Below, piece by piece: positions 1,735 to 30,071 of a stretch of DNA of 32,000 bases (position 1 is the first letter of the stretch; every line of letters begins with the position of its first letter). The translations under genes were made by a program, and so were the position numbers. The DNA is from an uncultured Erysipelotrichaceae bacterium. GTDB lineage: Bacteria; Bacillota_I; Bacilli_A; Erysipelotrichales; Erysipelotrichaceae. Under the pieces are notes generated by a model, which was not told the DNA's origin, ran no database searches, and was given only the letters and a program-made list of their open reading frames with translations. The DNA is taken from positions 510,001-542,000 of the forward strand of contig OW818668.1 of NCBI GenBank assembly GCA_942493105.1. Direction: 5' to 3'.

Positions 1735-1794
1735 AAGGCACCTCAATCTAACTTATTTTAACACAAAGCCAGTCACACGTGCGACTGGCTGCTT

Positions 1795-4764: not shown

Positions 4765-4795
4765 GTTTCCCCTTCTTTATGAACAGTATACTCTT

Positions 4796-6337: not shown

Positions 6338-7420
6338 TTAAAATGTTCCCAACTCCATTATCCTATTTTCCACCCATACTGCTTCTAGAAATTGATTATA
6401 AAGGTTAGATCCACTGATCATTCTAAGATGCTTGATCTGTGTTCTATTCAAGAAAGACGCTCTTACTTCTCTTTCATTGAACGAAGTAAGATGATTAAAG
6501 AAATTCTCCTTGCTTTCACAAATTAACATGATTAAGCATCTGTAAACATCCATGGCGCAAATAATGGCATCATGAAACCTGAAATTTGTAGTTGTGAAAT
6601 AACCAAAACCAATAACTCCTCTTTTTAGTAATTTATACATTTCGTGATCCCCAAACTTACCATCGGATAAAATCAATTTACATGTATCAATCGAATCCCT
6701 CAAACAATGTTGATAATCAACTCCTTTGAGCTCGCGATACTTTATTTCCCTGTTGCATATTTCAATATATGTCTCTTTGACTAAAGCAAAATCTTTAGAA
6801 CTCCTAAAAAGCTTTGAACAATCAAATAGTTGTTTGATAATTTCAGTGGTTTTCATATCTTTGTATCTTATCCCAACTGTATTTGGAGCGAATGCAGTTA
6901 GTTTATCACCAAGCATTTCTTCGACAGAAGGAATTTTGACAGAACTCAATGGTGTTATTGTGTCAAGTAGCTCAATGGCTATGTCCTTAGTAGTCAATTT
7001 TTTATACGGATTATCATCGACGACGATATCCAATAAAACATAAGGTAAAACACCATTGTCAGATCTAATTACAGATTGGTAATAAAACTTGTAATGGTGT
7101 TTTTGAAGAAGTGATGGTTTTCGAATATCTTCTGTGATTTTGATAAATCTACTATTTAAGTGGTTTCTTATGGCTTCGCTCAATTTCGCATAATTGTCTT
7201 CACTGATCAAAATATCGATATCCACAGAAAATCGATGAAATGACTCAAACTGTAGAAGTAAGCTGCTGCCCCCTTTGAAAACAAAATCGATATCAAGCAA
7301 TGATATCGATTCAAGAAGATGAAAAGCAGTGATGACTTTTTCAATTATTTCAGATTGACCAGGATTTGTTTTGCTTTTTTGAATAATCCAATCTTTACTA
7401 AAGCTTTTCTCACTGATCAT
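6338..7420 (-). CDS. abiEii: AbiEii/AbiGii-family nucleotidyltransferase toxin (type IV TA)
   Basis: The nucleotidyltransferase-fold motifs are FVFKGGSSLLLQF...RFSVDIDILI (G-S...DxD). The protein is 360 aa. A GGGGAG RBS lies 4 nt upstream of the ATG. The gene overlaps the upstream antitoxin-like gene by 11 nt. Confidence 0.75.
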   Translation of the reverse strand: MISEKSFSKDWIIQKSKTNPGQSEIIEKVITAFHLLESISLLDIDFVFKGGSSLLLQFESFHRFSVDIDILISEDNYAKLSEAIRNHLNSRFIKITEDIRKPSLLQKHHYKFYYQSVIRSDNGVLPYVLLDIVVDDNPYKKLTTKDIAIELLDTITPLSSVKIPSVEEMLGDKLTAFAPNTVGIRYKDMKTTEIIKQLFDCSKLFRSSKDFALVKETYIEICNREIKYRELKGVDYQHCLRDSIDTCKLILSDGKFGDHEMYKLLKRGVIGFGYFTTTNFRFHDAIICAMDVYRCLIMLICESKENFFNHLTSFNEREVRASFLNRTQIKHLRMISGSNLYNQFLEAVWVENRIMELGTF

Positions 7421-8213
7421 AGAACTCCCCGGTATCTATATCAAAGCTTAAGTTACGCTCTATATATTCCTTCATAACATCTTTTTTATTTCTACTTCGA
7501 GCATATGAAAATAAAGTTTTGAAGTTAACCGCATAGTCTCTAAGTATGTTTTTAAAAATCAAATCCCTTTTAGAATCATCAATAATGGTGAGTAGTGGCT
7601 CTACAAACAAATCCATCATTATTTTTTCGATCTTAGGTGTAGACAGTGACGATTTATCACCGTGATAGTTAAGGTTAAATCCTACATGCTTACTAAATCT
7701 TTTTTTATGGGTTGGGGCTTTATAGATCAGTGTCCTAAGAATGATGGTTGAATCTAACCCTATAAATGATTCTATCTGCTCAATATTCGGTTTTAATAAT
7801 ATATTAAATTGTTTATCTCGACTTAACCTTTCTAAAACAATAGACTCAAAGCCCTTTTCAACTTCCACAAAGCAAACATTTTTAAAAATTTGCATTTCAA
7901 GAAACTGATTAAGAGACTTTAGTTCCCATACACAAATCTCTAGTTTTGGATAAATTAAACTTAGGTCAGTCAATGCAGGCAAAACGATTGGTGAAGGTTC
8001 ACTTCTGTACGTCTTTCTAGAAGATATCTTATATTTGTCAGAGCTTAGTTGATATATGATGTTCTTGCTTGTCAAATCAAAAATCGCAAAACTTTTGCTT
8101 CTGGAATTTAAAAGATCAGATTCTTCATCGATAAATTGATTTAATGTCTTTGAATCAATAACGAACCCTTCAGGGAATCTATTCTTTAGTTTTTCAATGG
8201 TTGATTTTCTCAT
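7410..8213 (-). CDS. abiEi: AbiEi-like (DUF6088-type) antitoxin and transcriptional autoregulator
   Basis: Its position is immediately upstream of AbiEii and overlapping it. The N-terminus (STIEKLKNRFPEGFVIDSKTLNQF...) resembles the wHTH lead of AbiEi/DUF6088 proteins as I recall them. Paired palindromic operators sit in its promoter. The family assignment rests on synteny plus weak motif memory. Confidence 0.55.
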   Translation of the reverse strand: MRKSTIEKLKNRFPEGFVIDSKTLNQFIDEESDLLNSRSKSFAIFDLTSKNIIYQLSSDKYKISSRKTYRSEPSPIVLPALTDLSLIYPKLEICVWELKSLNQFLEMQIFKNVCFVEVEKGFESIVLERLSRDKQFNILLKPNIEQIESFIGLDSTIILRTLIYKAPTHKKRFSKHVGFNLNYHGDKSSLSTPKIEKIMMDLFVEPLLTIIDDSKRDLIFKNILRDYAVNFKTLFSYARSRNKKDVMKEYIERNLSFDIDTGEFYDQ

Positions 8214-11231: not shown

Positions 11232-12152
11232 TTACTTATATTGTTCCAATGCAACCAATAATTCTTGTATTATCTCTTGTCGTAACGAAGCCGGTTCAAG
11301 GACTTCACAATTTTTCCCAAGAGAAAGTATGAAACCTTTTGTAATATATTCGCCTTCCATTTCAGTCTCGAGGATCAATGTTTTTGAATCTAGATAGGTA
11401 ATCCTTGGATTGTTCCCAACTATGATTTCATCTACAAACCCACTATCTCGGATTTTTAGTTTCACTTTATACAATGGCAATGAAGTACCCTTTGTTACGT
11501 GAAGCGATGTCTTTAAAAATTTCTCATTCATAATCTCAAGATTTACTATTCGATTGAGTTTGTAGTTTCTCTTTTGATCAGGATTATCATCCTTTACAGC
11601 ATTGAAATACCAAGCATTATTTCTTTTCGTTAACTCAAACGGTTGAACAGTATAACTTTCGCTTTCGTCTGAATTAGGCTTATGGTATATTATTTTAACT
11701 TTAAAGCAATATTCAATCGCGTAGAGGAGTTGATCATAATATGTTGCCAGTTGTTCCTTTGGCATCGCTAAGGGAAAACCATTTACAACAGAAGAAATTA
11801 TGTCTTCAGATGCTCCACTTCTTTTCGATATTTTCTCAAGTGTGCGAATACAATCTTGTTGATTAAATATTGAGGTATCCTTTTCCATCAGTGATTTAAT
11901 ATTAAGTAATGTCTGATAGTCTTTTTGTGTAAATGGTATTCGTTGAAAAATACTTTTATTAGCAATATAGTATCCTCCATATTTTCCTTCATATTCTTCG
12001 ATTATTGCGCTCTCGTCATTGATCGCATCCTTGAGTCTCTTAACAGTTTTTGAAGAGACTCCTAAATGGTTTGCCAGTTTTTCCTTTGGTATCGGATCTG
12101 CTGAGTTTAGTAAGTGGTTTATTAATAGGTTGTAGAGTTGATAGTCTGACAT
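11232..12152 (-). CDS. HTH-WYL-domain transcriptional regulator (BrxR/CapW-like architecture)
   Basis: The N-terminal HTH is KEKLANHLGVSSKTVKRLKDAI. The WYL core is YTVQPFELTKRNNAWYFNAVKDD...RNYKLNRIVNLEI, followed by a C-terminal extension. The track start at 12164 is a TTG. The ATG at 12152 follows GGAGG by 5 nt and is preferred. Confidence 0.8.
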   Translation of the reverse strand: MSDYQLYNLLINHLLNSADPIPKEKLANHLGVSSKTVKRLKDAINDESAIIEEYEGKYGGYYIANKSIFQRIPFTQKDYQTLLNIKSLMEKDTSIFNQQDCIRTLEKISKRSGASEDIISSVVNGFPLAMPKEQLATYYDQLLYAIEYCFKVKIIYHKPNSDESESYTVQPFELTKRNNAWYFNAVKDDNPDQKRNYKLNRIVNLEIMNEKFLKTSLHVTKGTSLPLYKVKLKIRDSGFVDEIIVGNNPRITYLDSKTLILETEMEGEYITKGFILSLGKNCEVLEPASLRQEIIQELLVALEQYK

Positions 12153-12163
12153 AGATTCCTCCA

Positions 12164-12188
12164 AACCATACCCGTTTTGGGTATGGTT
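12164..12188. promoter_or_regulatory. Perfect inverted repeat; candidate WYL-regulator operator in the divergent intergenic region
   Basis: AACCATACCC (12164-12173), spacer GTTTT, GGGTATGGTT (12179-12188). This 10-bp perfect inverted repeat lies in the 77-bp gap between the two divergent start codons. Confidence 0.6.
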
Positions 12189-12205: not shown

Positions 12206-12229
12206 GTGAGAAATAGGAGTGGATTGTCG

Positions 12230-14221
12230 ATGGAAAATTGCAAACTGGACTTATTTAGTGATTTCGCAGAAGAAAAGAGAACTAATTCTCTCAGTGTTGT
12301 TAAGCTAGACTTTATTGAAAGCTTCAATTCCAATTGGATGGATCTGTTTATGGGTTATAAGTTTTTGCATGCCATTACATTTTCATCACAATTATCATTT
12401 ATTGAAAAAGTCATAAAGGAGTTCAATTATGTTGAAATAATTTTTGGAAATGAAACAGTAATTGGCGAAGATATTTCTGCTGTACTTGCTTATCAACACC
12501 AAGTGATTACTCAAATAAATAACGCTCGTCCAGATATTAGGAATGAAATTATCCAGAGAATAGAAGATGGATCACTTGTGTTATGGGTTGCCAAGAAACA
12601 GCTTTCTCATGAAAAAATCTATTTACTGTCCGGTGATAAAAAAGTTGTAATTACTGGCTCAGCTAATTTGTCTTACGCTGCCTTTACAGGTCGACAGAGG
12701 GAAACTATCAACGAAATTACTGGTGATCTTGCATACAAGTATTATTTTGAACAGTTTGAAATTCTTAAGTCGACTTCATCAAATAAAGTTGAACCAAGGC
12801 ATATACGAGAGTATAAGACAAACATTATTGAAAATCTTGACAAGTTACCTATATCTGATGAAATTAAGGAAAAAAATACTGTTGAAATAATTCAAGCTGA
12901 TCCACAAAATGAATCAATTTTCTCATATTCCGTTCTTAAGGATCAAGAGAATCTAAAGCGATACATACCGCTTGATAATGTGAAAGCTAAGCTTTCATTT
13001 CCAAGTCTTATAAACTGGCAGAATAAGTACAAAATGAATAATAGTTTTAAAGATGGAGTAAAAACCGAATATCTCCCTCAACTAGAAATTGATTTTAGTC
13101 AAAAAAAGGTATTCTTGTTAGGCAGAGAACTTGATCTCCATCCACCGCTCGATGAAGTAAAAAATGATCTTCAGCTCTTCAAAGAATTCATGAAGGGTTA
13201 TGATTCCTTTAATGGTACAAAAGAAGAGATAGAGTTAGCTAAGCAAAGATATTACGCCTTTGCAAATTGGTTCTTTATTTCACCGTTATTAAGTCATTTG
13301 CGTTTACTGGCTTACCGACATAATAAGAAGCCAGATTCATTCCCAGTATTTGGTTTGCTCTTCGGGAACAGTAAAGCAGGTAAAACATCTTTTCTATCAA
13401 CCCTACTTTATTTCATGATTAAAGGCGATCCAAAGAACCCGGCACGTGATTTTACAGCGAAGACGATCAATGATATTCGATACACTGCAAAGGGCACTCC
13501 TATCATCTATGACGATATGGTTGCGAGCCGATTTAATGCACATGCAGGTGAGGTTGTCAAAAATGACTCTTATGGGTTGAACGAAGGATTAAACAACTAC
13601 CCAGCAATTGTTATAAGTGCAAATGAAGATGTCAAAGTTGTTACACAGGATCTTGCACGTCGAATTGTTACCTATCGAGTCTCAATAGGACTAGATACAA
13701 CTGAGGCTATGAAGAACAACTCAATTCGACGTATACAGAAAAACATCACAACTGCTCTATACCGTCATTTCTTGGGTATAGTTTTTGATCGCCTAGATAA
13801 TTTTATATCGCCGATGTACGACGAACATAAAGATGAATCAATTGATGTCTTCAAGTTCTCATCTGAAATCCTTATGGAGATTTTCGAAACTCTTGGTAAA
13901 GATGATATCCCTTCTTACGTTCGTAATTTAGTTATTGATGATTATTTTGATGAAAAAATTACGAGTACTTATGCAATAAAGGCAATACAAACTGCTTGGA
14001 AGTACAATCGAGATCGATTTGTAGTAAATAAAAAGCGTAATCTTTTAAGATTTAGCCTTAGCGAACAACACGAACTTAATAGAATTAAGAAGGAACTTCC
14101 CGATTCACTACAAGCAAAAGTATCTCATGATACATTGATTATGGATTTGGCCAAAGCTGTAGAATTCTTCGAAATTGATTTTCATAATTCGAACATTTTT
14201 GACCGACTACTAAATAATTAG
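12230..14221 (+). CDS. Fusion of a single-HKD PLD-family nuclease (N-terminus) and a P-loop NTPase with SF3-helicase-like motif spacing (C-terminus)
   Basis: The only HKD motif is SHEKIYLLSGD...VITGSANLS (H codon at 12608-12610). Walker A is GNSKAGKT (13364-13387). The Walker B-like motif is PIIYDDM. The motif C-like element is PAIVISANED. The track start at 12206 is a GTG. The ATG at 12230 has an AGGAG RBS 10 nt upstream. Confidence 0.7.
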   Translation: MENCKLDLFSDFAEEKRTNSLSVVKLDFIESFNSNWMDLFMGYKFLHAITFSSQLSFIEKVIKEFNYVEIIFGNETVIGEDISAVLAYQHQVITQINNARPDIRNEIIQRIEDGSLVLWVAKKQLSHEKIYLLSGDKKVVITGSANLSYAAFTGRQRETINEITGDLAYKYYFEQFEILKSTSSNKVEPRHIREYKTNIIENLDKLPISDEIKEKNTVEIIQADPQNESIFSYSVLKDQENLKRYIPLDNVKAKLSFPSLINWQNKYKMNNSFKDGVKTEYLPQLEIDFSQKKVFLLGRELDLHPPLDEVKNDLQLFKEFMKGYDSFNGTKEEIELAKQRYYAFANWFFISPLLSHLRLLAYRHNKKPDSFPVFGLLFGNSKAGKTSFLSTLLYFMIKGDPKNPARDFTAKTINDIRYTAKGTPIIYDDMVASRFNAHAGEVVKNDSYGLNEGLNNYPAIVISANEDVKVVTQDLARRIVTYRVSIGLDTTEAMKNNSIRRIQKNITTALYRHFLGIVFDRLDNFISPMYDEHKDESIDVFKFSSEILMEIFETLGKDDIPSYVRNLVIDDYFDEKITSTYAIKAIQTAWKYNRDRFVVNKKRNLLRFSLSEQHELNRIKKELPDSLQAKVSHDTLIMDLAKAVEFFEIDFHNSNIFDRLLNN

Positions 14222-14394
14222 TCTCCCATTTCTATATATAACTTGAGTTATCACTAGATTGCTATAATATCTTATACTTTAATTGACTATTTGTGAGCTC
14301 TCTGAACACTATATAAAGTTATATATTAATTCATCCTTTGGAATATGGCTTAATCAACTTGCGTTGGAATCAATGAGCGCTTGATCGATCACAG

Positions 14395-14447
14395 AAAAAT
14401 CCCCACATAGATACCATGAGATTTATTTTCGTGTCTACTCTATGTGG
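14395..14447 (-). terminator. Possible terminator of the 1245-aa gene
   Basis: CCACATAGA (14403-14411) and TCTATGTGG (14439-14447) form a 9-bp stem. On the minus strand it is followed by GGATTTTTCTGT. The 27-nt loop is long for an intrinsic terminator, so confidence is low. Confidence 0.3.
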
Positions 14448-14469: not shown

Positions 14470-17400
14470 TTAAGAAGTCTCAAATAGATTAAATTCCTCC
14501 TTATTTCGTTCTGAAAAATGCTCTCTTTCGTGCGAAATTCTTGCATGTAATTGACTTAATAAATTAATTGCATATTCGTGAATTTTTGAATTTCTACTTT
14601 CAACAATATATTGAACTAGTGGAATTCGAGATGTTAATACGTCAGGTAATGTTTGATCCCAACTTCTTGGATATATCCGATCAATTAAGTTTTTGATTAT
14701 TTCTAGATTCGAAGTATTTTCAGCCTTTGAAATATAGAGTAACCCAAGATTTGTCCACGAACATTTTCCTTTGTCAATATCGTTGAATGGCAAGACGTAC
14801 TTCAATAGCAATTCATAACTATTATTCGTTTGTACCCACTTGACTAGAATCTCATCATCGATAAATGAAAGTGGACCTTGATGAAATCCATAAAACCCAG
14901 TTAAGAAATCATTTAGAAAATGACCTGAGTTTTCTGTATCATACCGGATAAATATATCAAGAAATTCTATTGGATAGTTCCTTATTATTGGCTCAAAAAC
15001 TTGATTTAAGTCACTAAACGATATGTACTCAACTTTTAAACAACTGTATAGTTTTTCGAAAATTTTTCTGGCTTGAACTTCATATTTATTTGAACCAAAA
15101 GTAGCTTTCGAGACAATTGAAAATTCATAGTTGATATGAGTATTCTTTGAAAATCGACTATCAAAGCGGTATCTCGATATAGAATCAGCTGATAAATCCA
15201 TTAATCTATCGTCAAATTTCGCCTTACTAATCGAAACACTTATAATGCTTATTTGAAGTTCAATTCCTTCATTAGTGTTTGGTACAAATTGAAAGATATC
15301 TATCATCTCTTCGATAGTTAGATCAACTAAAGTGTAGGCCAAATTCTTGAACTGTTTTAAAGATGTAGAGTCACCAACAAGTCCAGTTTTAATGAGTTGA
15401 ATAATATCACAATCAATTCTCACTGAAGATAAAAGATCTGGAAACATTCTTTTGGTTTTATCACTTGATAAAACCATTTGCATCGCTTCCTTTACTGTTT
15501 TCTTATCATCGATTTTTCCGCTTATCATACCTTTTAGCAACATAGGAGTGTTAGTATAATCTGAATTCGAGATATACTCAAAGACAGTATTAAAAAGTAA
15601 ATCAAATGGAATATCTGAACAAACAAGTCCCCTTCCAAAATATATCATTCGATAATTGTCTGACTCAAGTAACATAGAAAGATGTCTCTGAAAAAGTGTG
15701 AAATCCTTCGCAAACTGTTGGCCAATAGAAAATGCTTTCTCATCTATGTGTCTCTCATTTATATCCAAATCATCTTCTGAAATATAAACTCTTCTAGAGT
15801 TTGAAATATATACATTAAATTCATCGATTAAGTTATTTGGTTTTGTTTGTTCAGCCAAGCATTTAAGTCTCAAACGAATTGACTCTGGAATGTCTTTACC
15901 ACCAAAATGAAGAGTCTCTAAAACACTAATCCAGATTTCTGGCCAAGTTTCAGTTGTAATAACATTATTGATAATATTCTCTAGATGTCCCAACATTCCC
16001 AATTCCGTTAGTCCGGTAAAGTTATTTGATATTGTTTGTTTAAAATCACCTCTCAAATAATTATTTTCAATTTTTGATTGACAATAATCAAGAACTTTCT
16101 GGTACCAAGTTAATTGATCACCATATGTTTTTGGTTGATATCCATAGTCACGTTTCATTGCACCGAAATCAAAATTGTATCCATAAAAACTCGATGTTTT
16201 TAACATTTCATTAACTAGATGTAAACCAAAATCTGTCCGATTTGAATCGTCAGAAACAACTATTTCCTCTACAGCCTTCAATCTTTGCTCAACTGTAGCA
16301 TATGTTCCTGATAAAAATAGATGAAATAGATTTTCTACTCTATCTCTAATAGAGTATGTGTTCTCATTCTTTCCCTCCGAACAAGCGAATCTGAGAAGCA
16401 TAGAGATAACATCACTAAATCCAACATCATCATATCCGAGGAAAATGAGAATGTTAACAAAAGTATTATAATTCTCATTTTTTCTAGAAAAGAATTCCGG
16501 ATTAGTAATCGTCCCGATTCTATCTTTAATGACATCTGGGATTACAAAGGTGAGATTATAAATGATTTCAATATAAGAAGAATCGATGTTTTCAAAATCA
16601 TCAAAATAACCACTTTTATTAATAATCTCTTTTGAAGTGTTTTTTGCCTCGGTTGATGAGTGAAGAAATTTAAGTCTTCTTGAAAACGACAAAAGAGTTC
16701 TCCTATTATGCAGAAATACTTTTACAACTTCATCAGACCTATTCGCTTTTAAACATTTAATGGCCAATGCGTTTGCGAGAGCATGTGGAAGAACTGCTCT
16801 CATATTTCGTCTTACTTGAATTAACTTCATATCAACTAACAAATTAACATTCTCATAAACGTCTCGTGGGGAAATTCCGGAGATATTCGATAATATTCCT
16901 AATTCATTCTCTATGTTAAATGAAAATAGAAGTGAACACGCTTCCGCGGTCCTGGATAAAGGAACATTCAAAATATTCTGATTCATGAATAATCTGTTGA
17001 GTATTTGACTGCTGTTTAGAACCCCAATTGTTTGACTCTCGTTAATATTTGATGCCAAATATTTGGCCATTCTAAAATTCCCCCCCGACATGGAAATGAG
17101 TGTTTCTAAATTCGCGGCATTAATGTTCCCGAAATTCGATTTTATAAACATCTCTATAGTGTGATCTGAAGAAACAGACATATAGTAATTTGTCGTATCA
17201 ACTAAATCATCTTCTTTTGCATCGAACTCTATAGTAAGTAATGAAACTAAACTATTTGGGCTCTTACAGAGGTCGGATAAAACTGTATGCATATTCTTCT
17301 CACAATTATCAACTACAAGAATAATACGTTTATTGAGTTTTAGTAAATATTGAATCATTGTGATTGGTTCAGGGGTTGGATTATTGCTCATATCACAGTA

Positions 17401-18207
17401 AATTAGTATGTTAGCATCTTGAAAATTATCACCTTCATTGTTTGAGAATAATGAAAAAGCAAATCTCGTTTTCCCAACCCCGGACAATCCAGCAAGCCTA
17501 ACTATAGTACTAGGTTTTGATAATAAAATTCGAATTTCACTCAATGCAGAAACAATATCTAACTTATCAGCATCATTATATGAGTCTCTATATAGGCAAG
17601 ACTTTTCATCAAAGACCCATTCCTTTTTGAAACTAGTATCAGAATTTGACCATTCAACAAATGATAGCCATCCTGTAACATTTAGTCCCGTCCGATTTTG
17701 AACCCAAATGCACAAAGAAGGATACTCATTTACCCAAGAAACAATTTTATTGCAATCATAAAATGCAAAGGAAATTTTGCTTTCAGGATCAATGTCTACT
17801 AGACTGCAGCCAATTGCATTTTCGCGCAATATTTGTTCACGATATGTTACATCTGATCTACTGCTTGCAATAATATATTCACCATTATTTTCACGTAAAT
17901 ACGTAAAAATTTCGCGAATTTTCCCATTAGGCTTTATTTCCTCTAAAATTTTCCTATAGGTCATGTTTGGAACCTTGACCTGGATAATAGTGTTTGGATT
18001 TGAAATATAATCTTCAAAATCAAAACTGTTAGTTGACTTAACCAATACATCGACACCACCATCTTTTGCATCCTGGTTTCCACCATAATATACAGATTTC
18101 GAATTTATACCATGTTTACTTAATGTTGCTTCGCATAGTAGACCGATTAAAATCCTCAGATCTTGATCTGATAAATTTTTTATTTCAGTTTTAGTAATTT
18201 CGAACAT
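14470..18207 (-). CDS. Large STAND-type NTPase with an N-terminal Mrr/PD-(D/E)xK-like nuclease domain and a roughly 800-aa helical C-terminal region (Avs/bacterial NLR-like)
   Basis: The N-terminus carries DAKDGGVDVLV...(22 aa)...IIQVKV, matching the Mrr_cat-style D-GG-h-D...Q-x-K pattern. Walker A is GLSGVGKT (aa 240-247, about 17467-17490). Walker B is RIILVVDNCE. The GxP-like element is SGGNFRMAKYLA. A long repeat-poor, helix-rich tail follows. A GAGGT RBS lies 8 nt upstream of the ATG at 18207. Confidence 0.7.
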   Translation of the reverse strand: MFEITKTEIKNLSDQDLRILIGLLCEATLSKHGINSKSVYYGGNQDAKDGGVDVLVKSTNSFDFEDYISNPNTIIQVKVPNMTYRKILEEIKPNGKIREIFTYLRENNGEYIIASSRSDVTYREQILRENAIGCSLVDIDPESKISFAFYDCNKIVSWVNEYPSLCIWVQNRTGLNVTGWLSFVEWSNSDTSFKKEWVFDEKSCLYRDSYNDADKLDIVSALSEIRILLSKPSTIVRLAGLSGVGKTRFAFSLFSNNEGDNFQDANILIYCDMSNNPTPEPITMIQYLLKLNKRIILVVDNCEKNMHTVLSDLCKSPNSLVSLLTIEFDAKEDDLVDTTNYYMSVSSDHTIEMFIKSNFGNINAANLETLISMSGGNFRMAKYLASNINESQTIGVLNSSQILNRLFMNQNILNVPLSRTAEACSLLFSFNIENELGILSNISGISPRDVYENVNLLVDMKLIQVRRNMRAVLPHALANALAIKCLKANRSDEVVKVFLHNRRTLLSFSRRLKFLHSSTEAKNTSKEIINKSGYFDDFENIDSSYIEIIYNLTFVIPDVIKDRIGTITNPEFFSRKNENYNTFVNILIFLGYDDVGFSDVISMLLRFACSEGKNENTYSIRDRVENLFHLFLSGTYATVEQRLKAVEEIVVSDDSNRTDFGLHLVNEMLKTSSFYGYNFDFGAMKRDYGYQPKTYGDQLTWYQKVLDYCQSKIENNYLRGDFKQTISNNFTGLTELGMLGHLENIINNVITTETWPEIWISVLETLHFGGKDIPESIRLRLKCLAEQTKPNNLIDEFNVYISNSRRVYISEDDLDINERHIDEKAFSIGQQFAKDFTLFQRHLSMLLESDNYRMIYFGRGLVCSDIPFDLLFNTVFEYISNSDYTNTPMLLKGMISGKIDDKKTVKEAMQMVLSSDKTKRMFPDLLSSVRIDCDIIQLIKTGLVGDSTSLKQFKNLAYTLVDLTIEEMIDIFQFVPNTNEGIELQISIISVSISKAKFDDRLMDLSADSISRYRFDSRFSKNTHINYEFSIVSKATFGSNKYEVQARKIFEKLYSCLKVEYISFSDLNQVFEPIIRNYPIEFLDIFIRYDTENSGHFLNDFLTGFYGFHQGPLSFIDDEILVKWVQTNNSYELLLKYVLPFNDIDKGKCSWTNLGLLYISKAENTSNLEIIKNLIDRIYPRSWDQTLPDVLTSRIPLVQYIVESRNSKIHEYAINLLSQLHARISHEREHFSERNKEEFNLFETS

Positions 18208-18747
18208 ACATACTTACCTCAAGACATAATTTGTCTATTTATAACGTTTATTTATGGTCTGTTTCGGCTTTTTGTGGAGTAATTTTGAAAACATCCCTTA
18301 ACTCAAAACCACTTATTAATGCTCATATCCAACAAACATTAAAATGATGTCATCTAAGTTTTTACTCATTGTTTTTATTGTACCACACGAATGCTAAACA
18401 CTTATGCCGGCTTAAAAAACTCATCACGGTATCGCATTCACTCTTGGAGGAGCGTTTGGATCATACTAGCACTCACACACATTCCATTACACTTTTATTA
18501 CGACTTTTATGTAAATTGAAATTCATAAAATTGTATTGTAAAAATCACAACTATTTGAAGCGGATCCACAAAGGATTCACGAAAGCAGAAAGTGAATTGA
18601 ATACCTAATTTAAATCCCAATATCGCACAGAAAGCTAAATCAGTTTACACAAGATTTCTGACACTATATTCTGTTTTGCTACTCTCTTAATTTGGTACTT
18701 AACAAATAGACACTTAATAATTCAAATCATTCAAGTATAATATCCTT

Positions 18748-20430
18748 ATGCCCACCATGTATCCTGATTTTCTTCCTAAACCACTAGAAGAGTACTTAAG
18801 GGGAGAAGCTAAAGTGTTCGAAGCTTTTAGAAACCAGCTTAGTAAAGACTGGATTGTTTATCATTGTGTGAACTGGCATATTCCTTCAGATAAACACAAT
18901 AGACAACGAGATGCTGAAACCGACTTTATCTTAACCCATCCACAATATGGAATCTTAGTGATTGAAGTTAAAGGCGGCGTTCAAATTAGATATGTTGCTG
19001 AACATAATCAATGGTTGAGTACAGACTATCATCTTAAAGTTCACGAGATCAATGATCCTTACCTACAAGCCAAACAAAACAAATACAATGTAATCAATGA
19101 ATTGCTTAAAATTCCTGAATTGAGTTTCTATGATAAACAAAGTTTAGATAATAAAATTAGTATAGGATATGCTGTCATCTTTCCAGATGTGACCATTGTG
19201 AATGGATCTTTACCTGTAGAAGCAGCTACCGAAATTACTTTGACCAGTAATCACTTAAGTCACATTGAGGAAATATTGATTTCTTTATGTACTTATTATG
19301 CTTGTGGGAAACAACACAGTACTGCTTTAGCTTTTCAAGCTCACTTGGGTTTAAAGAATCTATTGGCTCCTTCCTTTACCATTGAAAGAACACTGACAAC
19401 TTGGTTTGAAGATGAAGAGAGAAGAATCATTGAGCTTACAGATGAACAATATAACTTGCTGAATTATATAAGACTTGTCAAGAAAGCCAGTATCTATGGT
19501 TGTGCTGGTAGTGGAAAAACGTTGATTGCGATTCGTAAATCAGAATTGTTAAGTCAAGAGAATCAAGGTGTCTTGTTGGTATGCTTCAACAACATCCTTG
19601 GTAAACACTTAGAACATCACTTTAGAAAAGATGAGAATGTCGTTGCAGGATCTTTTTATAATATCCTTTGTCAAGAGTTGAAACTACCCATGACCTATGA
19701 TAACGATGCCCTACTTAAAACCAAGATCCTTGAAGATCATCCTGGTTACTTTGATGCGATCATCATTGATGAAGCTCAAGACTTCTCATCATCTCAACTT
19801 GAGATCATCAAACTATTGCTTAAACAAGATGGCTTGCTTTATTACTTCTGGGATGATAATCAACAAGTCATGAAAAGAGACATCAATGTTGAGTTTGATA
19901 AAGATGCTTTCCCACTGATCTTATCCACCAATCACAGAAATACAGCCAAGATATTTGAAGCAGTTAAACAACATTTCCACAAAGACATAGACATCACTCA
20001 TAAAGGGGTGGAAGGTCGTAATGTTGAGGTTTTAGAACCTTATAAACACAAGAATGCGACAGTATTGTTTGTTCGTCTTAGAGAGATTCTAGATCGCTTG
20101 ATTGATGTTGAAAAGATCAATCCAAAAGACATTGTTATCTTAACTTTCAAGTCTAAAACAAAATCACATTTGATTGATTTTAGTTGTGTATATCCAATTT
20201 GTCTCTTCAGTGATGAAGCTCAACCAAATGGGGTAAGAATTGATACAGTGCGTCGTTTTAAAGGCATGGAATCAAAAGTAGTTATCGTTACTGAAATGGA
20301 TGATGAGCGAAGCTTAAAGGATCCAATGATGTTTGAAGATATGTGTTATGTATCTTTCTCAAGAGCTGTTCATCACTTGATTATCTTGCCTCCGGATAAT
20401 GCTGAACTCTTTTTATCTCAATCAAAATGA
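18748..20430 (+). CDS. NERD-domain nuclease fused to a UvrD/AAA_30-type SF1 helicase
   Basis: The NERD core is DAETDFILTHPQYGILVIEVKGG. The helicase Walker A is GCAGSGKT and motif II is AIIIDEAQDF. The C-terminal motif is VDTVRRFKGMESKVVIV, followed by CYVSFSRA. No SD sequence is present. TATAAT (18736-18741) ends 6 nt before the ATG. Confidence 0.8.
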   Translation: MPTMYPDFLPKPLEEYLRGEAKVFEAFRNQLSKDWIVYHCVNWHIPSDKHNRQRDAETDFILTHPQYGILVIEVKGGVQIRYVAEHNQWLSTDYHLKVHEINDPYLQAKQNKYNVINELLKIPELSFYDKQSLDNKISIGYAVIFPDVTIVNGSLPVEAATEITLTSNHLSHIEEILISLCTYYACGKQHSTALAFQAHLGLKNLLAPSFTIERTLTTWFEDEERRIIELTDEQYNLLNYIRLVKKASIYGCAGSGKTLIAIRKSELLSQENQGVLLVCFNNILGKHLEHHFRKDENVVAGSFYNILCQELKLPMTYDNDALLKTKILEDHPGYFDAIIIDEAQDFSSSQLEIIKLLLKQDGLLYYFWDDNQQVMKRDINVEFDKDAFPLILSTNHRNTAKIFEAVKQHFHKDIDITHKGVEGRNVEVLEPYKHKNATVLFVRLREILDRLIDVEKINPKDIVILTFKSKTKSHLIDFSCVYPICLFSDEAQPNGVRIDTVRRFKGMESKVVIVTEMDDERSLKDPMMFEDMCYVSFSRAVHHLIILPPDNAELFLSQSK

Positions 20431-20473: not shown

Positions 20474-23047
20474 ATGAACCAGCATTTTGATTATATTGAT
20501 CAAGTTCTAGGCAAATACAATTATTCTCGTATCGAAACTTTTTACTATTATCCTCAAGATAAACAAATAGTTTCACTATTTTATGATTCTTCTGATACTT
20601 GTATAATCATCGATATCAATATATGTGATCAAAGGAATCCAATTTTCAACTACGAATTCTACACACAAAGACAAAACGAATATATGGCTCAATATTCACG
20701 CTGCTTTAGAATAGTTTATGATGAGAATCTTGAGCGTAAAGTAGATGAACTTTTAAATAACAATAAAGTTTTAGAGTTCTCTAAAGACTCCTATAGTCAA
20801 AGAGATACCCAATATATTGATAACTCCGCTTTGGAATCCGAATTTGAGAATCGTTTTATTGATGTTTATGGTACTGAAGCTTTGGAATTTCTATATAAGG
20901 AGTTTGGATTCTTAGATTTTGAAGGAAAACAGACTTTCTTAGATTTTGTCTTGAATACAGAAAATGGTTATGTTGCTATCGAAGAAAACGGTGTAGGTTT
21001 TCATCATCCGCAACTTATTGGTTTGGAAAAATACCAGAAACAACTTGATAAACAGAATGCATTTTGTTATTTCGGGTATAAGCTGTTCAGATTTTCTTCT
21101 ATGGATTGTGTTAACCGGGACAAAATTAACGATAATATTCGACACTATTTCGGTGATATATCCAAGTTTAAGAAAAAAGAATATGTCATGGGTACACGTG
21201 ATGTTGAACTATATGATCACCAAAAACTGACATTATCCAAGATCATAGAAGACAGAAAAAACGGGAAGTATAATTTCCTCGTTGTGTTTCCAACTGCCGC
21301 AGGAAAATCGAAAATCATTGAAGAAGATCTGAGTAGTCTTCTTGTACTCAACCCAAAATTGAAAGTTTGCATCGTAGCACCGAATAAACCCATTGTTGAA
21401 GATTGGAAGGAAAGAGTTCATAAAGTTCTGCAATCTCTGAAAATGAATCTGAGTGTTGGAGAAGGTATTGAAAATCAAATCATTTGTGCTTCATATTATG
21501 CACTATGGAATAATGCTTATACAATACGTCCAGATTTCTTTGATTACATTGTTATTGATGAGGCCCATCATGCTGCCGCACCGATGATGAGAAGAGCACT
21601 TCAATACTTCACACCAAAATATCTTGTTGGTCTTTCAGCAACACCTGAGAGGATGGACCTACAACAGATAAGCACCATTTTTGGTGAGTACCAAACTCCA
21701 TTAACTATTGAAGAAGCTATGAAAACAGGTGTCATTTCCAAAGCAAGAGCTTATCGTATAAACACTAATTTAGATTTATCTGAAGTTCGCTTCAATGGAA
21801 AGTCATTCAATAATTCCGATCTTGAGAAAACGATTCGTGTTAAGTCCAGAAATGAATTAATTGCGGATGTTATTGAAAGATATTTTACAGAGGGTGAATA
21901 TGGGAAGTTACAGGGCATTATTTTCTGTACGAGCATTGCACATACTGAAGAAATGGAAAAAATCATGAATAGACGTGGCATTCCAACTCTAGCAGCCCAT
22001 TCCTCTAAAAGAGAAGATCCTATAAAACAATATTCAGAAAAGAAAATCCGTTTTTTAGCCAGTTGTGCTCTTATTTCTGAAGGATGGGACAGTCCTCAAA
22101 CCAGCATCGTTGTTATGGCTAGACCAACCTTATCAAAAGCTCTCTACCTGCAACAGGTTGGTCGAGGTTTTAGAAGATATCCAGGTAAAGAAGCTCTTTA
22201 TGTTATCGATGTTGTGGATCAGTATGGATCATTGGCTATCCCTTGGTCAATCAACGCTATATTTCACAACCCCAATTATGTTCCATTTGGCGATCCATCT
22301 AAACAACCACATCTTGGAGATATGATTACTGTAAATGGTATTCAAGAAAAGATTCTAAGTATTCAAGAAATCAATATCAACACATTCGAGAAATCATATG
22401 GAGACATGTTGAGTAGTGAACAAGCCGCTAGAGAACTTTATACTGGAACAAACACGCTTATCAATTGGGTTAAAAATGGAACAATCAAAGCCGATCTCGT
22501 TATCCCCTTCGGTTCTTCGAAACTTTACTTCTTCAAACCGGATTCTATTAAAACGATTCGTGATCTAAAGAATCTTGGTGTTCATGATGATTCAACACTC
22601 TTTACTGACTTTTTTGAGTTTATTAAAGACAAAAAATTTAGCTTCTCATTCAAGATAATATTCATGTTGGCATTAATGAAAAACATTGACGTTAATGGTG
22701 AAGCTATGCTTGATAATGTAAGGAAATTGTATGTTCAGTTCTATCTTGACCGAATTGAAAAGGGTCTTAAAGTTGATCGAGATAATTGTATTTATACCAA
22801 GGAATATCTAAGTAATGAAAAGATCGTTGATAATAGTATTCTATCTAATCCATTTGAGAAATTTGAACGCAAACGATTTGTCTTTTACAGCAAAGATCTT
22901 TCACGCATATCATTTAATCAGACACTTTGGCTACAACTAAAAGAAAGCCATTTTATTGAGATTGAAAAAATAATGGTTAACCACCTGATAGAATATTATA
23001 GAGATATGGATGGGGTACAAGATATCCCATACCTTAGGAGATTTTAA
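20474..23047 (+). CDS. Multidomain SF2 (ResIII/DEAH) helicase with an N-terminal Vsr/DUF559-like endonuclease-fold region, a C-terminal MerR/excisionase-like HTH and an uncharacterised tail
   Basis: The nuclease-like region spans aa ~120-225 (ESEFENRFIDVYG...FLDFVL...YVAIEENGVGFH...YKLFRFSS). Helicase motif I is FPTAAGKS, motif II is VIDEAHH, motif III is LSATPER and motif VI is QQVGRGFRR. The HTH-like segment is LSSEQAARELYTGTNTLINWVKNGTIKA. The tail of about 150 aa is unassigned. Confidence 0.8.
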   Translation: MNQHFDYIDQVLGKYNYSRIETFYYYPQDKQIVSLFYDSSDTCIIIDINICDQRNPIFNYEFYTQRQNEYMAQYSRCFRIVYDENLERKVDELLNNNKVLEFSKDSYSQRDTQYIDNSALESEFENRFIDVYGTEALEFLYKEFGFLDFEGKQTFLDFVLNTENGYVAIEENGVGFHHPQLIGLEKYQKQLDKQNAFCYFGYKLFRFSSMDCVNRDKINDNIRHYFGDISKFKKKEYVMGTRDVELYDHQKLTLSKIIEDRKNGKYNFLVVFPTAAGKSKIIEEDLSSLLVLNPKLKVCIVAPNKPIVEDWKERVHKVLQSLKMNLSVGEGIENQIICASYYALWNNAYTIRPDFFDYIVIDEAHHAAAPMMRRALQYFTPKYLVGLSATPERMDLQQISTIFGEYQTPLTIEEAMKTGVISKARAYRINTNLDLSEVRFNGKSFNNSDLEKTIRVKSRNELIADVIERYFTEGEYGKLQGIIFCTSIAHTEEMEKIMNRRGIPTLAAHSSKREDPIKQYSEKKIRFLASCALISEGWDSPQTSIVVMARPTLSKALYLQQVGRGFRRYPGKEALYVIDVVDQYGSLAIPWSINAIFHNPNYVPFGDPSKQPHLGDMITVNGIQEKILSIQEININTFEKSYGDMLSSEQAARELYTGTNTLINWVKNGTIKADLVIPFGSSKLYFFKPDSIKTIRDLKNLGVHDDSTLFTDFFEFIKDKKFSFSFKIIFMLALMKNIDVNGEAMLDNVRKLYVQFYLDRIEKGLKVDRDNCIYTKEYLSNEKIVDNSILSNPFEKFERKRFVFYSKDLSRISFNQTLWLQLKESHFIEIEKIMVNHLIEYYRDMDGVQDIPYLRRF

Positions 23048-23647
23048 ATGAGTTACAAATATTACGATGATCATGCTGAAGAATACTACGAGAGTTCTTT
23101 CAATGCCAACATGAGTGAAACGATGGAAAGATTCTTGCACTATGTCCCAAAGGGTGCCACCATTCTTGATGCTGGTTCTGGTACAGGCAGAGACACAAAG
23201 ACCTTGCTTGATCTTGGCTATACCGTAAAGGCATTTGATGCTTCTATAGAAATGGTAAAGATGAGCGCTCTATATACGGGAATTGAAACTCTACACGCAA
23301 AGTTTGAAGAGATTGAATATTGTGATGAATTTGATGGGATATGGGCTTGCGCATCTTTGTTGCATGTTGATAGGCACAGCCTTGATCATGTTTTCTTTTT
23401 GCTTAAAAAGGCACTCAAGAAAGATGGGATTCTATATTGTTCTTTCAAATCCCGGGAAAAAGACTACATAAAGGATGGACGTCATTTCACTTGTTTTACT
23501 AATGAGAATCTCGCTAAATATTTGGAAGGAATTAATCAGTTTTCGATAATCGAAATTTGGGATTCCAGGGATGTTAGGGAGGATCGAAAAAGTGAAGTCT
23601 GGGTTAATTGTATTCTCAAGAATGGATCACAAGTTACTAAAAAGTAG
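23048..23647 (+). CDS. Small class-I SAM-dependent methyltransferase (Methyltransf_11/25-like; not a recognisable DNA methyltransferase)
   Basis: Motif I is ILDAGSGTGRDT, followed by the acidic loop FDAS and post-motif GIWACASLLHV. There is no (D/N/S)PP(Y/F/W) motif, no PCQ/ENV motif and no target-recognition domain. The ATG directly abuts the helicase TAA (taaATG), and an AGGAG RBS lies 7 nt upstream inside the helicase gene. Confidence 0.8.
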   Translation: MSYKYYDDHAEEYYESSFNANMSETMERFLHYVPKGATILDAGSGTGRDTKTLLDLGYTVKAFDASIEMVKMSALYTGIETLHAKFEEIEYCDEFDGIWACASLLHVDRHSLDHVFFLLKKALKKDGILYCSFKSREKDYIKDGRHFTCFTNENLAKYLEGINQFSIIEIWDSRDVREDRKSEVWVNCILKNGSQVTKK

Positions 23648-23862: not shown

Positions 23863-26826
23863 CTATTTTTTATATTGATGTCCCACTCTAGTGAATGGTG
23901 ATAGGTTAATATAGAGTGTATTGACATCACCTTTTTCCCATTGGCGTTTTTCTAATGTTTTGAACAAATCTTCCTGTCGAGGTTGACCCAAGGTGAGCCG
24001 ATACAATGACAAAACATTAATTAATCGGTCATATTTGATTTTATCTTGACTATATGGGTACATAGGAACAATTCTTTCGATCTTGACCGAGAATGGGAAA
24101 TTCTCGGGTAAACACCAGTATGGAACCAAGTCCGAATTATTTCCCTTCAATTCAATAGAAGCCTTAGCAAGCATTTCTTCCCAGACGTTTTTATGGAAAT
24201 CCATTTTACCAAAATTGCTGTTGGCAATATTTTGTCGTATAGCATGACACATATATCTGTTGATGCGCCCTTCGCGCTGTTCCAAATCAACAGGGTTGGA
24301 TGGGAGGTTCCAGTGCATGATTTTTCGGCTATAGCTATGAAAATCAAGACCTTCTTGACCTATTGAAGTGGTGGCCAGCACGAAAGGTCTAAACGGAGAG
24401 TTAAAAGCGGTCCTGATGTTTTCAGTTCGCTGAATGGTTACTTCACTGATGGTCGCATTGAAATAGCCAGTCGCAAAATGGGTGCGCATGTTGACTTGTG
24501 ACTTGTTTTGCTCGAATTGTTCTCTAGTCTTGATCTGTAGTTGGACAGTATTTATAAAAGCCCCTTTCATGGAGTTGAGCAATTGCTCATCCTTTTCTCC
24601 TAGGACATAAGCGTATTCATCCAATACTGCTTGAAGATTGCCCTCAGCACAATAGCTGAATACATTCTCGTAATAAAACTCATCTTTTGTCTCATATATA
24701 AGATCGATGATGGCAATTGACTCAGGTTTATTGAATAAGGACACAAAACTTGCAGCTAGGTTTGAAGCATATACTTCATTCTTGAAAATTCTCAATGCAC
24801 ATACTGCAGGGGAACCGATCGCCATAGTTGCTAAGGTTTCAGCTGCATTTGATGTGATGGTTAGAAGTTTGTCTGTTGAAGGCTTTCCATCCAAAATTTT
24901 CAGAAGTTCAATCAACTGGGTTGCCCCACCGCGTCCTGCCATGATGTTGTGTTGTTCTGCGATCAGATCAATTTTTAGTTGAATGATCTGTGTCAATTCT
25001 CTTTTAAGTTGAGACAATGGCTTATCTTTGTGATCAAGTGGGGCATAGAGACTAGCCAAATATTGTGAGGCATATTTAACCAGATCTTCAGTCTCTCCCT
25101 TAAGTCTTGCCGTAATTGCGCGTCTTATTTCACTAGCGAAGTATTTTGTGTCGATATTTCCAGTTTTCTGATTGAGCTTACCAACGGTTCTTCTTTCAGC
25201 TTCATAGGAAGTGAGAACAGCAATCATGCGGGGAACCATTTCCCAACTTGAAAACACCAGTAATTTTGAATAATCTTTGTTTTGGTGGAAGTAGCCTTTT
25301 GTTTGATAGTAAGGTAAAGACGCGGGAATCCATAGTAAAAGTTCAGGTCCGCCTTTATCCAAAGGGAACACTTCCTGGAAGAGCATGTCTAGACGCGCAT
25401 TGTTGGTAGGAATGAGTTTATAGTTATTGATCCTATTCTTTCTGATTAGAGCGGTTTCTGCTTTTTGAAGCTGAGTGTAATTTCCACTCTTTTTTAAAGC
25501 ATCAACAACTTTCTCATTGACCTTATATTTCCCCATAATCGATAAGAGATAGGGGGAGGATTTTACATATTCGATTGGAAAGTTTCCAAGTTCCAAACTT
25601 ATCATGAGTTGTTGCATTTGAATGTAAGAATGGATGTCTTCAGGCGTTATCGACATCTCCTTTACTTTAGAAGTGTCGATCATCGCATTATTCATTCTTT
25701 CGGTTCGACATACGTTTCTGTAAAGTTCATCCTCAGCCTTTTTTTTCTGTACAATCAGAACTGTGATGTCATCGGATTTCAACTCTCCTAAAACAGCCGA
25801 ATAACTACTCCATACTTGGTGGAAATACTCCTTCTTTGTTTTGGTAAATAACAGGAAATCCATTACGTCGATGAACTCTTTATAGTGTTCTGTCTCACCA
25901 TTGGATAATTCCTCTATGGTTGTGTAGGGTTTATACGGGGTTGCTGATAAGAGCAATACTTTAGTGTTCTCATTGAAGAGAAAACGGTTTGAAAACATAG
26001 ATCTTTCGTTGCTTTGAACAGCATTCTGGTTGTTATGGTCAGCTATTAGATCTTTGAAGCGCTGGAACTCATCCATGATGATAAGATCAGGCTCCAATTT
26101 TTCCAAACTGATTTGAGCAAAAAGCTGTCTCAGTTCAGTGATGATTTTTGAGCGCTCTGACTTTTTCACCGCAAAAACATCGGTCAATTGTACAATGGAG
26201 AGAATCTTTTGGTACAGTGTGTCCGTCATTTTTTTATTAAGCGCCGTTATCATGTCGTTGATGTAGGATCCGTGTTTATTGTCACATAAGGTCACTTGCT
26301 TTTCATACCATTGTATATTGGATTCCCAATATTTCATGTTTTCTAAGTGTTGTAAAAGATCATTTAACTTGCTCGAGTATAAACCTAAATCCCTGAACCG
26401 GACCAAAAAAACGTAAAGCAATGCCCTTTCCCAATAAGTTCCTTCGCCATTTTTCATAAAAGATGTGGCTGGAGTTAGTGGTATCAATTGGCGTGTGTTG
26501 TTTTTCTCGCCGGCCTTCTGATATATTTTAAGATGGAGCATAGATAAACGACTTTCGGCGATATTTATACAATCATTCTCATCCACACCAAGTTTGCGAA
26601 AATTCTGATTAGCGATGTTCATATTCGAACAGACATAGATAATCCTAAACATAGGGTCTTTCATCTCGGTATGCCAATCATAAACTTTACGCACAACTTC
26701 TCTTGCAATGATTGTTTTCCCCAAGCCGACCTCGTCGGCTAATAGGACACGATTTTGATGATCATCTCTGTAAATCTGCAAAATCCGGTCCGCTGTCGCA
26801 ATCTGAAAATCCTTAGCATTTATCAT
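23863..26826 (-). CDS. SNF2-like SF2 helicase/ATPase
   Basis: Motif I is LADEVGLGKT, motif II is LIIMDEFQRF, motif III is LLLSATPYKP, motif V is TTSIGQEGLDFH and motif VI is LEQREGRINRY. The start overlaps the upstream PLD gene's stop by 4 nt (ATGA). Confidence 0.8.
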   Translation of the reverse strand: MINAKDFQIATADRILQIYRDDHQNRVLLADEVGLGKTIIAREVVRKVYDWHTEMKDPMFRIIYVCSNMNIANQNFRKLGVDENDCINIAESRLSMLHLKIYQKAGEKNNTRQLIPLTPATSFMKNGEGTYWERALLYVFLVRFRDLGLYSSKLNDLLQHLENMKYWESNIQWYEKQVTLCDNKHGSYINDMITALNKKMTDTLYQKILSIVQLTDVFAVKKSERSKIITELRQLFAQISLEKLEPDLIIMDEFQRFKDLIADHNNQNAVQSNERSMFSNRFLFNENTKVLLLSATPYKPYTTIEELSNGETEHYKEFIDVMDFLLFTKTKKEYFHQVWSSYSAVLGELKSDDITVLIVQKKKAEDELYRNVCRTERMNNAMIDTSKVKEMSITPEDIHSYIQMQQLMISLELGNFPIEYVKSSPYLLSIMGKYKVNEKVVDALKKSGNYTQLQKAETALIRKNRINNYKLIPTNNARLDMLFQEVFPLDKGGPELLLWIPASLPYYQTKGYFHQNKDYSKLLVFSSWEMVPRMIAVLTSYEAERRTVGKLNQKTGNIDTKYFASEIRRAITARLKGETEDLVKYASQYLASLYAPLDHKDKPLSQLKRELTQIIQLKIDLIAEQHNIMAGRGGATQLIELLKILDGKPSTDKLLTITSNAAETLATMAIGSPAVCALRIFKNEVYASNLAASFVSLFNKPESIAIIDLIYETKDEFYYENVFSYCAEGNLQAVLDEYAYVLGEKDEQLLNSMKGAFINTVQLQIKTREQFEQNKSQVNMRTHFATGYFNATISEVTIQRTENIRTAFNSPFRPFVLATTSIGQEGLDFHSYSRKIMHWNLPSNPVDLEQREGRINRYMCHAIRQNIANSNFGKMDFHKNVWEEMLAKASIELKGNNSDLVPYWCLPENFPFSVKIERIVPMYPYSQDKIKYDRLINVLSLYRLTLGQPRQEDLFKTLEKRQWEKGDVNTLYINLSPFTRVGHQYKK

Positions 26827-29718: not shown

Positions 29719-30071
29719 GTGCTCCCCTTCATTAAAACCATCTCTAAAGACCATTATACTATTTGATTATGTCAATTTATTTTGTATAACAGGGAAATTC
29801 AACCTTGTAGCTTAAACTTTTGGAATTTATTAGATTTATAGGAGAGCAGTCACAGTACTATCATGCTGTAAGAAAATGTTAGATACCCTTATACATATAG
29901 TTTAGTCGTCTTTCGGTGGGTGAGTCAAATCTTATCTCTGATAGATTACAACAAAAGCTATCTATTTCATTAAGAAATATAATTCATATTGAGAGTTTAG
30001 TTTCACTAAACTGTTTATAATTGTTCAAATTTAACGAAACATTTTTCAAAAAATTGAGTTATTCAACCATG

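Follow-up and report, generated by a model that had tools for sequence, protein, structure and literature searches.

A divergent Avs8 (PD-λ-4A) relative encoded by a single gene in a defence island of an Erysipelotrichaceae-type gut Firmicute

Members of the Avs1-4 families (AVAST; e.g. SeAvs3 and EcAvs4) are built from an effector, an NTPase and a TPR-like sensor, and binding of their ligand, which is the terminase or the portal, leads to tetramerisation that switches on the N-terminal nuclease. Here we analyse an avs8-like gene in a 32,000-nt stretch of DNA (the window) from an uncultured Erysipelotrichaceae bacterium (contig OW818668.1, positions 510,001 to 542,000). Its 1245-aa product is a divergent gut-Firmicute relative of Avs8; it is a real defence gene, and its family has already been described. 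PD-λ-4 (Vassallo 2022, PMC9519451) was renamed Avs8 in 2025-26 (10.1101/2025.07.02.662641; 10.64898/2026.01.04.697583). Avs8A (WP_000963924.1 from ECOR07) is a STAND NTPase with an N-terminal nuclease of the Mrr family (10.1101/2025.07.02.662641). The E. coli protein has dissociation constants of 127 nM for λ gpE and 14 nM for the Bas21 major capsid protein, degrades double-stranded DNA in a Mg2+- and ATP-dependent manner once bound to the capsid protein, and no longer confers defence when its nuclease active site is mutated; Avs8B, its operon partner, is dispensable for defence in E. coli (10.1101/2025.07.02.662641). Recognition is shape-based, in that E. coli Avs8A accepts HK97-fold capsid proteins with <15% shared identity (10.1101/2025.07.02.662641). 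An independent screen identified the major capsid protein as the trigger of both EcAvs8 and KpAvs8, with a TPR-like sensor that wraps around the capsid A-domain, and reported degenerate Walker motifs for KpAvs8 (10.64898/2026.01.04.697583). Avs7 and Avs10 (Erebus/Hypnos/bNACHT64) are STAND NTPases as well, and they too wrap a helical sensor around the major capsid protein of HK97 fold, but they are reported as separate families with other sensor architectures (10.64898/2026.01.04.697583).

Our profile analysis places the window protein almost certainly in the Avs8/PD-λ-4A family. The PADLOC model PD-Lambda-4_A matched it with an E-value of 3.2e-178 (593 bits), aligning residues 1-1239 with positions 3-1279 of the 1283 in the profile, and at E<=1 no other PADLOC models than those of PD-Lambda-4_A were matched, in particular none of Avs1-5 or NLR/bNACHT. 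As positive controls, E. coli Avs8A scored 2524 bits on PD-Lambda-4_A and Avs8B matched PD-Lambda-4_B with E=2e-164. The original prediction, made from the sequence alone, had put the protein outside the Avs1-5 and bNACHT models, which is correct as far as these models go, but it had also called the family unclear and the lineage uncaptured by current models, and this second part cannot be maintained, given the full-length PD-Lambda-4_A match and the fact that Avs8 is a named and characterised family. The PADLOC search had been chosen beforehand as the check by which novelty would stand or fall, and it returned a confident match to an existing Avs clade, namely Avs8.

The relationship to the characterised protein is also evident in direct comparisons. 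As the reference Avs8A we used the 1283-aa gene of EC71 (locus L005), which is followed by WP_000443183.1, the Avs8B accession given in the published work; this operon was recovered from an E. coli genome collection by a distant blastn match from an Enterobacter gene. BLASTP aligned residues 1-1220 of the window protein with E. coli Avs8A in one alignment (25% identity over 1295 columns, E=7e-111). Profiles built separately for individual segments from Bacillota-type relatives and searched against E. coli Avs8A (Z=10^6) all matched in register: residues 1-190 with E=4e-51 (aligning to residues 3-190 of the E. coli protein), 191-474 with 2e-88, 475-800 with 6e-81, 801-1000 with 4e-23, 1001-1245 with 2e-28, and 801-1245 taken together with 7e-57. 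Since every segment profile is in register, the homology to Avs8A spans the whole protein, sensor included. The two proteins are of the same length class (1245 vs 1283 aa), match the same PADLOC model and present a Mrr-type nuclease (predicted in the window protein), a STAND P-loop and an α-helical sensor in co-linear order; the Walker A motif GLSGVGKT is identical, and the D...QxK triad, the DNC Walker B, GGNxR, LPHAxAN, LSGT.A..EQR and RDYG are common to both. They differ in the host, which is a Bacillota member (Erysipelotrichaceae-type) rather than an enterobacterium, and in the lack of an Avs8B partner beside the window gene. General domain databases add little: Pfam and NCBIfam scans of the window protein gave zero matches, Pfam gave marginal matches to AAA_16, NPHP3_N, NB-ARC and nSTAND3 in some of 19 family members, and a profile search against the PDB sequences returned only helical noise from apolipoprotein A-I, so that no solved structure is detectable by sequence. 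By sequence, the window protein matches neither the solved structures of Avs1-4 nor the PADLOC models of these families, and in this it differs from them.

The gene and the parts of its product, with the evidence for each, are as follows.

14470-18207, minus strand: avs8-like gene (PD-λ-4A family), 1245 aa plus stop codon, ATG start; from the open reading frame, PADLOC and BLASTP
18216-18220, minus strand: Shine-Dalgarno-like GAGGT, 8 nt upstream of the ATG; read from the sequence
17638-18207, minus strand: predicted N-terminal Mrr-type PD-(D/E)xK nuclease, residues ~1-190; from motif, topology and segment profile
18061-18063 and 17974-17982, minus strand: nuclease codons of D49 and of Q76-V-K78, respectively; invariant residues
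17173-17610, minus strand: STAND P-loop nucleotide-binding domain, residues ~200-345; from invariant motifs and Foldseek
17467-17490 and 17299-17322, minus strand: Walker A GLSGVGKT and Walker B ILVVDNCE, respectively; motifs read
16786-17172, minus strand: putative helical and winged-helix-like STAND modules, residues ~346-474; from invariants, helices 348-459 and a β-hairpin 463-472
14473-16785, minus strand: α-helical repeat (TPR/HEAT-like) sensor, residues 475-1245; from ~45 consecutive helices, Foldseek and profiles

Residue conservation was assessed in an alignment of 74 homologues and in a second set of 19 sequences that includes E. coli. Neither set shows any variation in the nuclease triad, Walker A or Walker B, and the main motif residues of the nuclease and the NTPase stay invariant when three enterobacterial proteins are added. 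The AlphaFold2 model, which covers residues 1-1200 (mean predicted local distance difference test score, pLDDT, 86.4) and was compared with the PDB by Foldseek, consists of an α/β part (1-~190), a P-loop α/β part (~200-345), helical modules with a β-hairpin (~348-472) and ~45 helices to the end. The order proposed in the original prediction, i.e. nuclease, STAND NTPase and helical sensor, with an Avs-like effector-NTPase-sensor logic encoded by a single gene in a defence island, is borne out by the motifs and the model, and by Foldseek for the NTPase and the sensor, and the motifs it quoted are found where it placed them (DGGVDVLV at 49, IIQVK at 74, GLSGVGKT at 240, ILVVDNCE at 296 and SGGNFRMA at 374).

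In the nuclease domain D49, G51, D53, Q76 and K78 are invariant among the 74 homologues and E. coli Avs8A. The original prediction had made conservation of the catalytic residues a check on function, and D49, Q76 and K78 are conserved; the residues it proposed for mutagenesis (D49, K78 and K246) are all invariant among the 74. In a separate model of the N-terminal domain (pLDDT 86.8) the core elements follow one another as α-β-β-β-α-β, the canonical arrangement; D49 precedes β2, and Q76-x-K78 lies on β3. The linker of ~150 aa that had been envisaged between nuclease and P-loop turns out to be part of the predicted nuclease: residues 80-190 form the rest of the α/β nuclease domain, are modelled with pLDDT ~90 (confidence is lower only at ~175-215) and contain the invariant G109, Y111, I113, S115, R128, D151, W158, W168, G179 and W180.

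The invariant residues of the P-loop domain among the 74 homologues are G240, S242, G243, G245, K246, T247, R248, D300, N301 and C302. T325, E327 and D329, on the strand after Walker B, are invariant or nearly so, and that strand may hold the carboxylate that catalyses the ATP hydrolysis described for EcAvs8A. Foldseek matched the core to NOD2, CED-4, Apaf-1, Dark, a plant TIR-NLR and AVAST5 (E 3e-6 to 1e-3), and also to ORC1. The nucleotide-binding core is thus of the same fold as in the eukaryotic STAND/NLR proteins (NOD2, Apaf-1, CED-4, plant TIR-NLR; E 3e-6 to 5e-4), which differ from the window protein in sharing only 10-13% identity and in having other effector and sensor domains. Residues ~346-474 would correspond to the ARC/winged-helix module, according to the model; the invariants there are G376, N377, R379, R405, L406, F407, Q464, R466, L473, P474 and N479, of which G376, N377 and R379 lie in the GGNxR motif (375-379), and the LPHAxAN motif (473-479) opens the sensor segment that follows. 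From ~475 on the model is all-helical save for a few very short strands, in agreement with the helix-rich C-terminal part noted earlier. Foldseek matched this solenoid to CAND1, karyopherins and SF3b, so that the structural check returned STAND NTPases for the core and α-solenoids for the sensor. Family-wide invariant residues of the sensor are F572, N577, F597, E611, S633, R642, G689, W701, W759, G829, G860, W1124 and W1151.

The reading frame is unbroken over all 1245 codons, and G+C content is 31.9% in the gene vs 39.7% in the core flank (1-5641). An open reading frame of this length in 32% G+C DNA, with 834 clusters of relatives, is not a chance one. Downstream the gene converges on a PLD/P-loop gene (12206-14221, plus strand) and upstream it diverges from a NERD-helicase gene (18748-20430, plus strand), so that it is monocistronic by geometry; position, monocistronic layout, ribosome-binding site GAGGT and convergence on the PLD-ATPase gene had all been predicted and are found in the sequence. 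Between its stop codon and the converging gene there is no open reading frame of >=60 aa. A promoter scan gave 33 promoter-like sites vs 25±5 expected in shuffled sequence, which is not above expectation, and a scan for terminators revealed no canonical intrinsic terminator-like site. An inverted repeat with 9-bp arms and a loop of ~30 nt, CCACATAGA ... TCTATGTGG, is located at ~14386-14447, between the two converging stop codons.

Grouped at 50% identity, the relatives of the window protein with E<=1e-30 amount to 834 clusters, nearly all of them 1240-1280 aa long and matched over their full length. At least 480 species representatives carry relatives, and these species belong to Bacillota, Pseudomonadota, Bacteroidota, Chloroflexota, Planctomycetota and other groups; plasmid-borne copies are known from Bacillus, Rhizobium, Leptospira, Legionella, Xanthomonas and others. 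This distribution across many phyla contradicts the DefenseFinder-based statement that PD-Lambda-4 is found in Proteobacteria only. The window protein itself is present in NCBI, Breznakia pachnodae has the closest homologue among named organisms (38% identity), and the database relatives are all labelled "hypothetical protein". A histidine kinase encoded nearby shares its 90%-identity cluster with a protein of an Erysipelotrichaceae metagenome-assembled genome. A neighbour-joining tree of 19 sequences on p-distances, which is rough and not a robust phylogeny, contains an enterobacterial group with the characterised proteins, a broad core and an AT-rich gut-Bacillota (Erysipelotrichaceae-type) group that includes the window protein; this last branch is sparse and the farthest of all from E. 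coli. A few family members (e.g. P0216, 1368 aa) match only from ~residue 141 on, which suggests another N-terminus, and others, among both the clusters and the plasmid copies, match only to ~residue 860. Such partial matches hint at occasional replacement of the effector or the distal sensor, or else reflect extreme divergence alone; an Enterobacter homologue with a divergent end is still matched by the profile.

We propose that the window protein is most probably a stand-alone antiviral STAND NTPase of the Avs8 (PD-λ-4A) type, encoded on the chromosome of an Erysipelotrichaceae-type member of Bacillota and acting as E. coli Avs8A does. What the analysis establishes for the window protein is a family match over the full length, catalytic and nucleotide-binding residues that are all in place, a predicted fold in three parts, a single gene and the island setting, while the identity of the trigger, the oligomerisation and the abortive outcome are inferred by analogy. 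By extension from E. coli Avs8A, the protein would be an inactive monomer in uninfected cells; upon infection its C-terminal α-solenoid would wrap the fresh monomeric HK97-fold major capsid protein, and this binding would license the P-loop core to oligomerise in an ATP-dependent manner, probably as a tetramer. The oligomer would bring the N-terminal Mrr-type nuclease domains together, and phage and host double-stranded DNA would then be degraded indiscriminately, so that the infection is aborted. Because the key residues are invariant, it is very likely that this switch and effector logic (ligand-bound sensor, ATP-dependent oligomerisation, Mrr-type DNase, abortive infection) is conserved. 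Orthology also makes an HK97-fold capsid protein the probable ligand, a prediction that we hold with less assurance on account of the highly diverged distal sensor. The original prediction had suggested terminase and portal as triggers; the known trigger of the Avs8 family is the major capsid protein.

Several observations weigh against this interpretation. Capsid activation, DNase activity and an anti-phage phenotype are known only from the E. coli and Klebsiella homologues, not from members in Bacillota. Overall identity to E. coli Avs8A is low (23% in the multiple alignment, 25% in BLASTP) and falls along the protein, from ~30% in residues 1-474 through 26% in 475-800 to just 12-14% in 801-1245, i.e. 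in the last ~445 residues, which form the distal sensor. It follows from this low identity, especially in the distal sensor, that the trigger specificity may differ from that of E. coli Avs8A. The PADLOC model PDLC03989, which covers the C-terminus only, had no reported match to the window protein. Pfam found Mrr_cat in none of the 19 family members, and a Foldseek search with the isolated N-terminal domain yielded no significant match (best E=0.18), the weak and non-significant leaders being the PD-(D/E)xK nucleases Card1, Mus81 and Hef. The nuclease assignment has good support from the position of its motifs, from the topology and from the biochemistry published for the E. coli protein, and the fold search gives no independent proof of it. 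Finally, Walker B has the family-wide invariant form D-N-C (300-302) where D-D/E is usual, which bears on the mechanism of hydrolysis.

A rival reading of the divergence of the sensor is retargeting: the gut-Bacillota proteins would retain the same nuclease/NTPase switch and recognise another phage protein, or another surface of the capsid. We regard this as unlikely, though it deserves consideration, as it would account for the low identity of residues 801-1245 and for the rough tree, in which no branch lies farther from the enterobacterial group than that of the window protein; the members that match only to ~860 hint at a more plastic C-terminal module, and sensors are in general the fast-evolving part within Avs families. 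Against these points, the sensor is co-linear by profile throughout, its distal part included (the E=7e-57 match of 801-1245), and holds family-wide invariant residues; moreover, E. coli Avs8A already accepts by shape capsid proteins of <15% identity, and the major capsid protein is the trigger of EcAvs8 and KpAvs8 alike. If retargeting were true, the gut-Bacillota proteins would be a functionally distinct sub-family, and Avs8 would exemplify a change of trigger within a single sensor that stays co-linear; the target may be a phage protein other than the HK97 capsid, or a surface found only on the capsids of phages that infect Erysipelotrichaceae and related hosts.

Two further explanations question the assignment itself. 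A new Avs/NLR-like lineage that belongs to no existing family and fits no existing model would be in keeping with the lack of matches to Pfam, NCBIfam, Avs1-5, NLR/bNACHT models and solved structures and with the "hypothetical protein" labels of the relatives, but the full-length PD-Lambda-4_A match and the full-length homology to E. coli Avs8A, which link the protein to a named and characterised family, refute it and leave it very improbable. It is barely credible that the protein is a decayed or non-defensive STAND protein, such as a regulatory ATPase or an inactive relic of the island. The promoter and terminator scans would fit such decay, and the degenerate Walker motifs of KpAvs8 mean that not all members of the family keep an active NTPase; yet the frame of the window gene is intact, its product retains every family-invariant residue, including the nuclease triad and Walker A/B, the ribosome-binding site is good, and five other defence modules lie around the gene. 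The reading that we prefer remains a stand-alone Avs8-type protein that acts as E. coli Avs8A does.

The absence of Avs8B is a general feature of these loci. A tblastn search of the window with E. coli Avs8B gave a best E-value of 6.6, i.e. no homologue, and Avs8B is absent from all 84 other homologue loci examined. In E. coli STEC434 the Avs8A homologue (L004, 5001-10613), which is 67% identical to that of EC71, is likewise without Avs8B and is followed by a gene for an "RNA-directed DNA polymerase"; Avs8B is thus not fixed even within E. coli. Being dispensable for defence in E. coli and absent beside the STEC434 homologue, Avs8B does not define the Avs8A family, and we regard it as a lineage-specific passenger gene. 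A DUF2335 gene downstream of the Enterobacter homologue was considered as a candidate Avs8B and rejected, since in E. coli this gene belongs to a prophage and is unrelated. None of the window neighbours recurs beside the homologues at the 84 loci, where the largest cluster of flanking genes comprises five loci, and the converging PLD-ATPase, the WYL regulator and the NERD-helicase were rejected as functional partners on these grounds. The avs8-like gene is a self-contained module with no conserved partner.

The gene is located in a dense defence island bounded by core division genes (FtsE/X, PcsB-like) and a PASTA-domain gene, and is surrounded there by five other defence modules. An abortive-infection toxin-antitoxin pair, AbiEii (E=1.2e-90) and AbiEi (6.9e-44), is encoded at 6338-8213 on the minus strand, in a 32% G+C patch between core genes and a two-component system. 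A regulator with WYL/WCX domains (11232-12164, minus strand) is divergent from the gene of the 671-aa PLD/P-loop protein (12206-14221, plus strand), their start codons being ~40 bp apart. The latter protein combines an NgoFVII-like PLD nuclease domain (Pfam RE_NgoFVII, PLDc_2) with the P-loop GNSKAGKT and has no match in PADLOC or NCBIfam; its relatives (27% identity, 82% coverage) on plasmids of Acetobacter and Komagataeibacter are annotated as "restriction endonuclease PLD domain-containing protein", and it is a candidate for an unclassified defence gene under WYL control. On the other side, the NERD and UvrD-type helicase protein (18748-20430, plus strand) matches the PADLOC model RTasNERD-Hel (reverse-transcriptase-associated) with 5.7e-89; no reverse transcriptase was matched among the window open reading frames scanned, and the protein appears to be a stand-alone Nhi-like nuclease-helicase. 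At 20474-23647 (plus strand) an 857-aa ResIII/DEAD helicase (PADLOC type IV methyl-directed restriction, 1.6e-34) abuts a 199-aa S-adenosylmethionine methyltransferase (mad2-like, 4.5e-14), probably as a two-gene restriction-like module. A complete Azaca system occupies 23863-29754 (minus strand), with ZacC (987 aa, 1.5e-271), ZacB (579 aa, 1.6e-135) and ZacA/DUF6361 (399 aa, 2.8e-91) encoded by genes whose start and stop codons overlap.

As a divergent member of a described family, the window protein is of low general interest. Its practical value is for annotation, since neither Pfam nor NCBIfam offers a model of the family, whose members are labelled "hypothetical". Rule-based system definitions of PADLOC and DefenseFinder may demand both Avs8A and Avs8B; if they are so defined, callers that require both genes may miss lone Avs8A genes. 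The distribution of the relatives means that Avs8-type proteins extend far beyond the enterobacterial examples that have been studied, and a Gram-positive orthologue offers a useful test case for the reach of shape-based capsid recognition.

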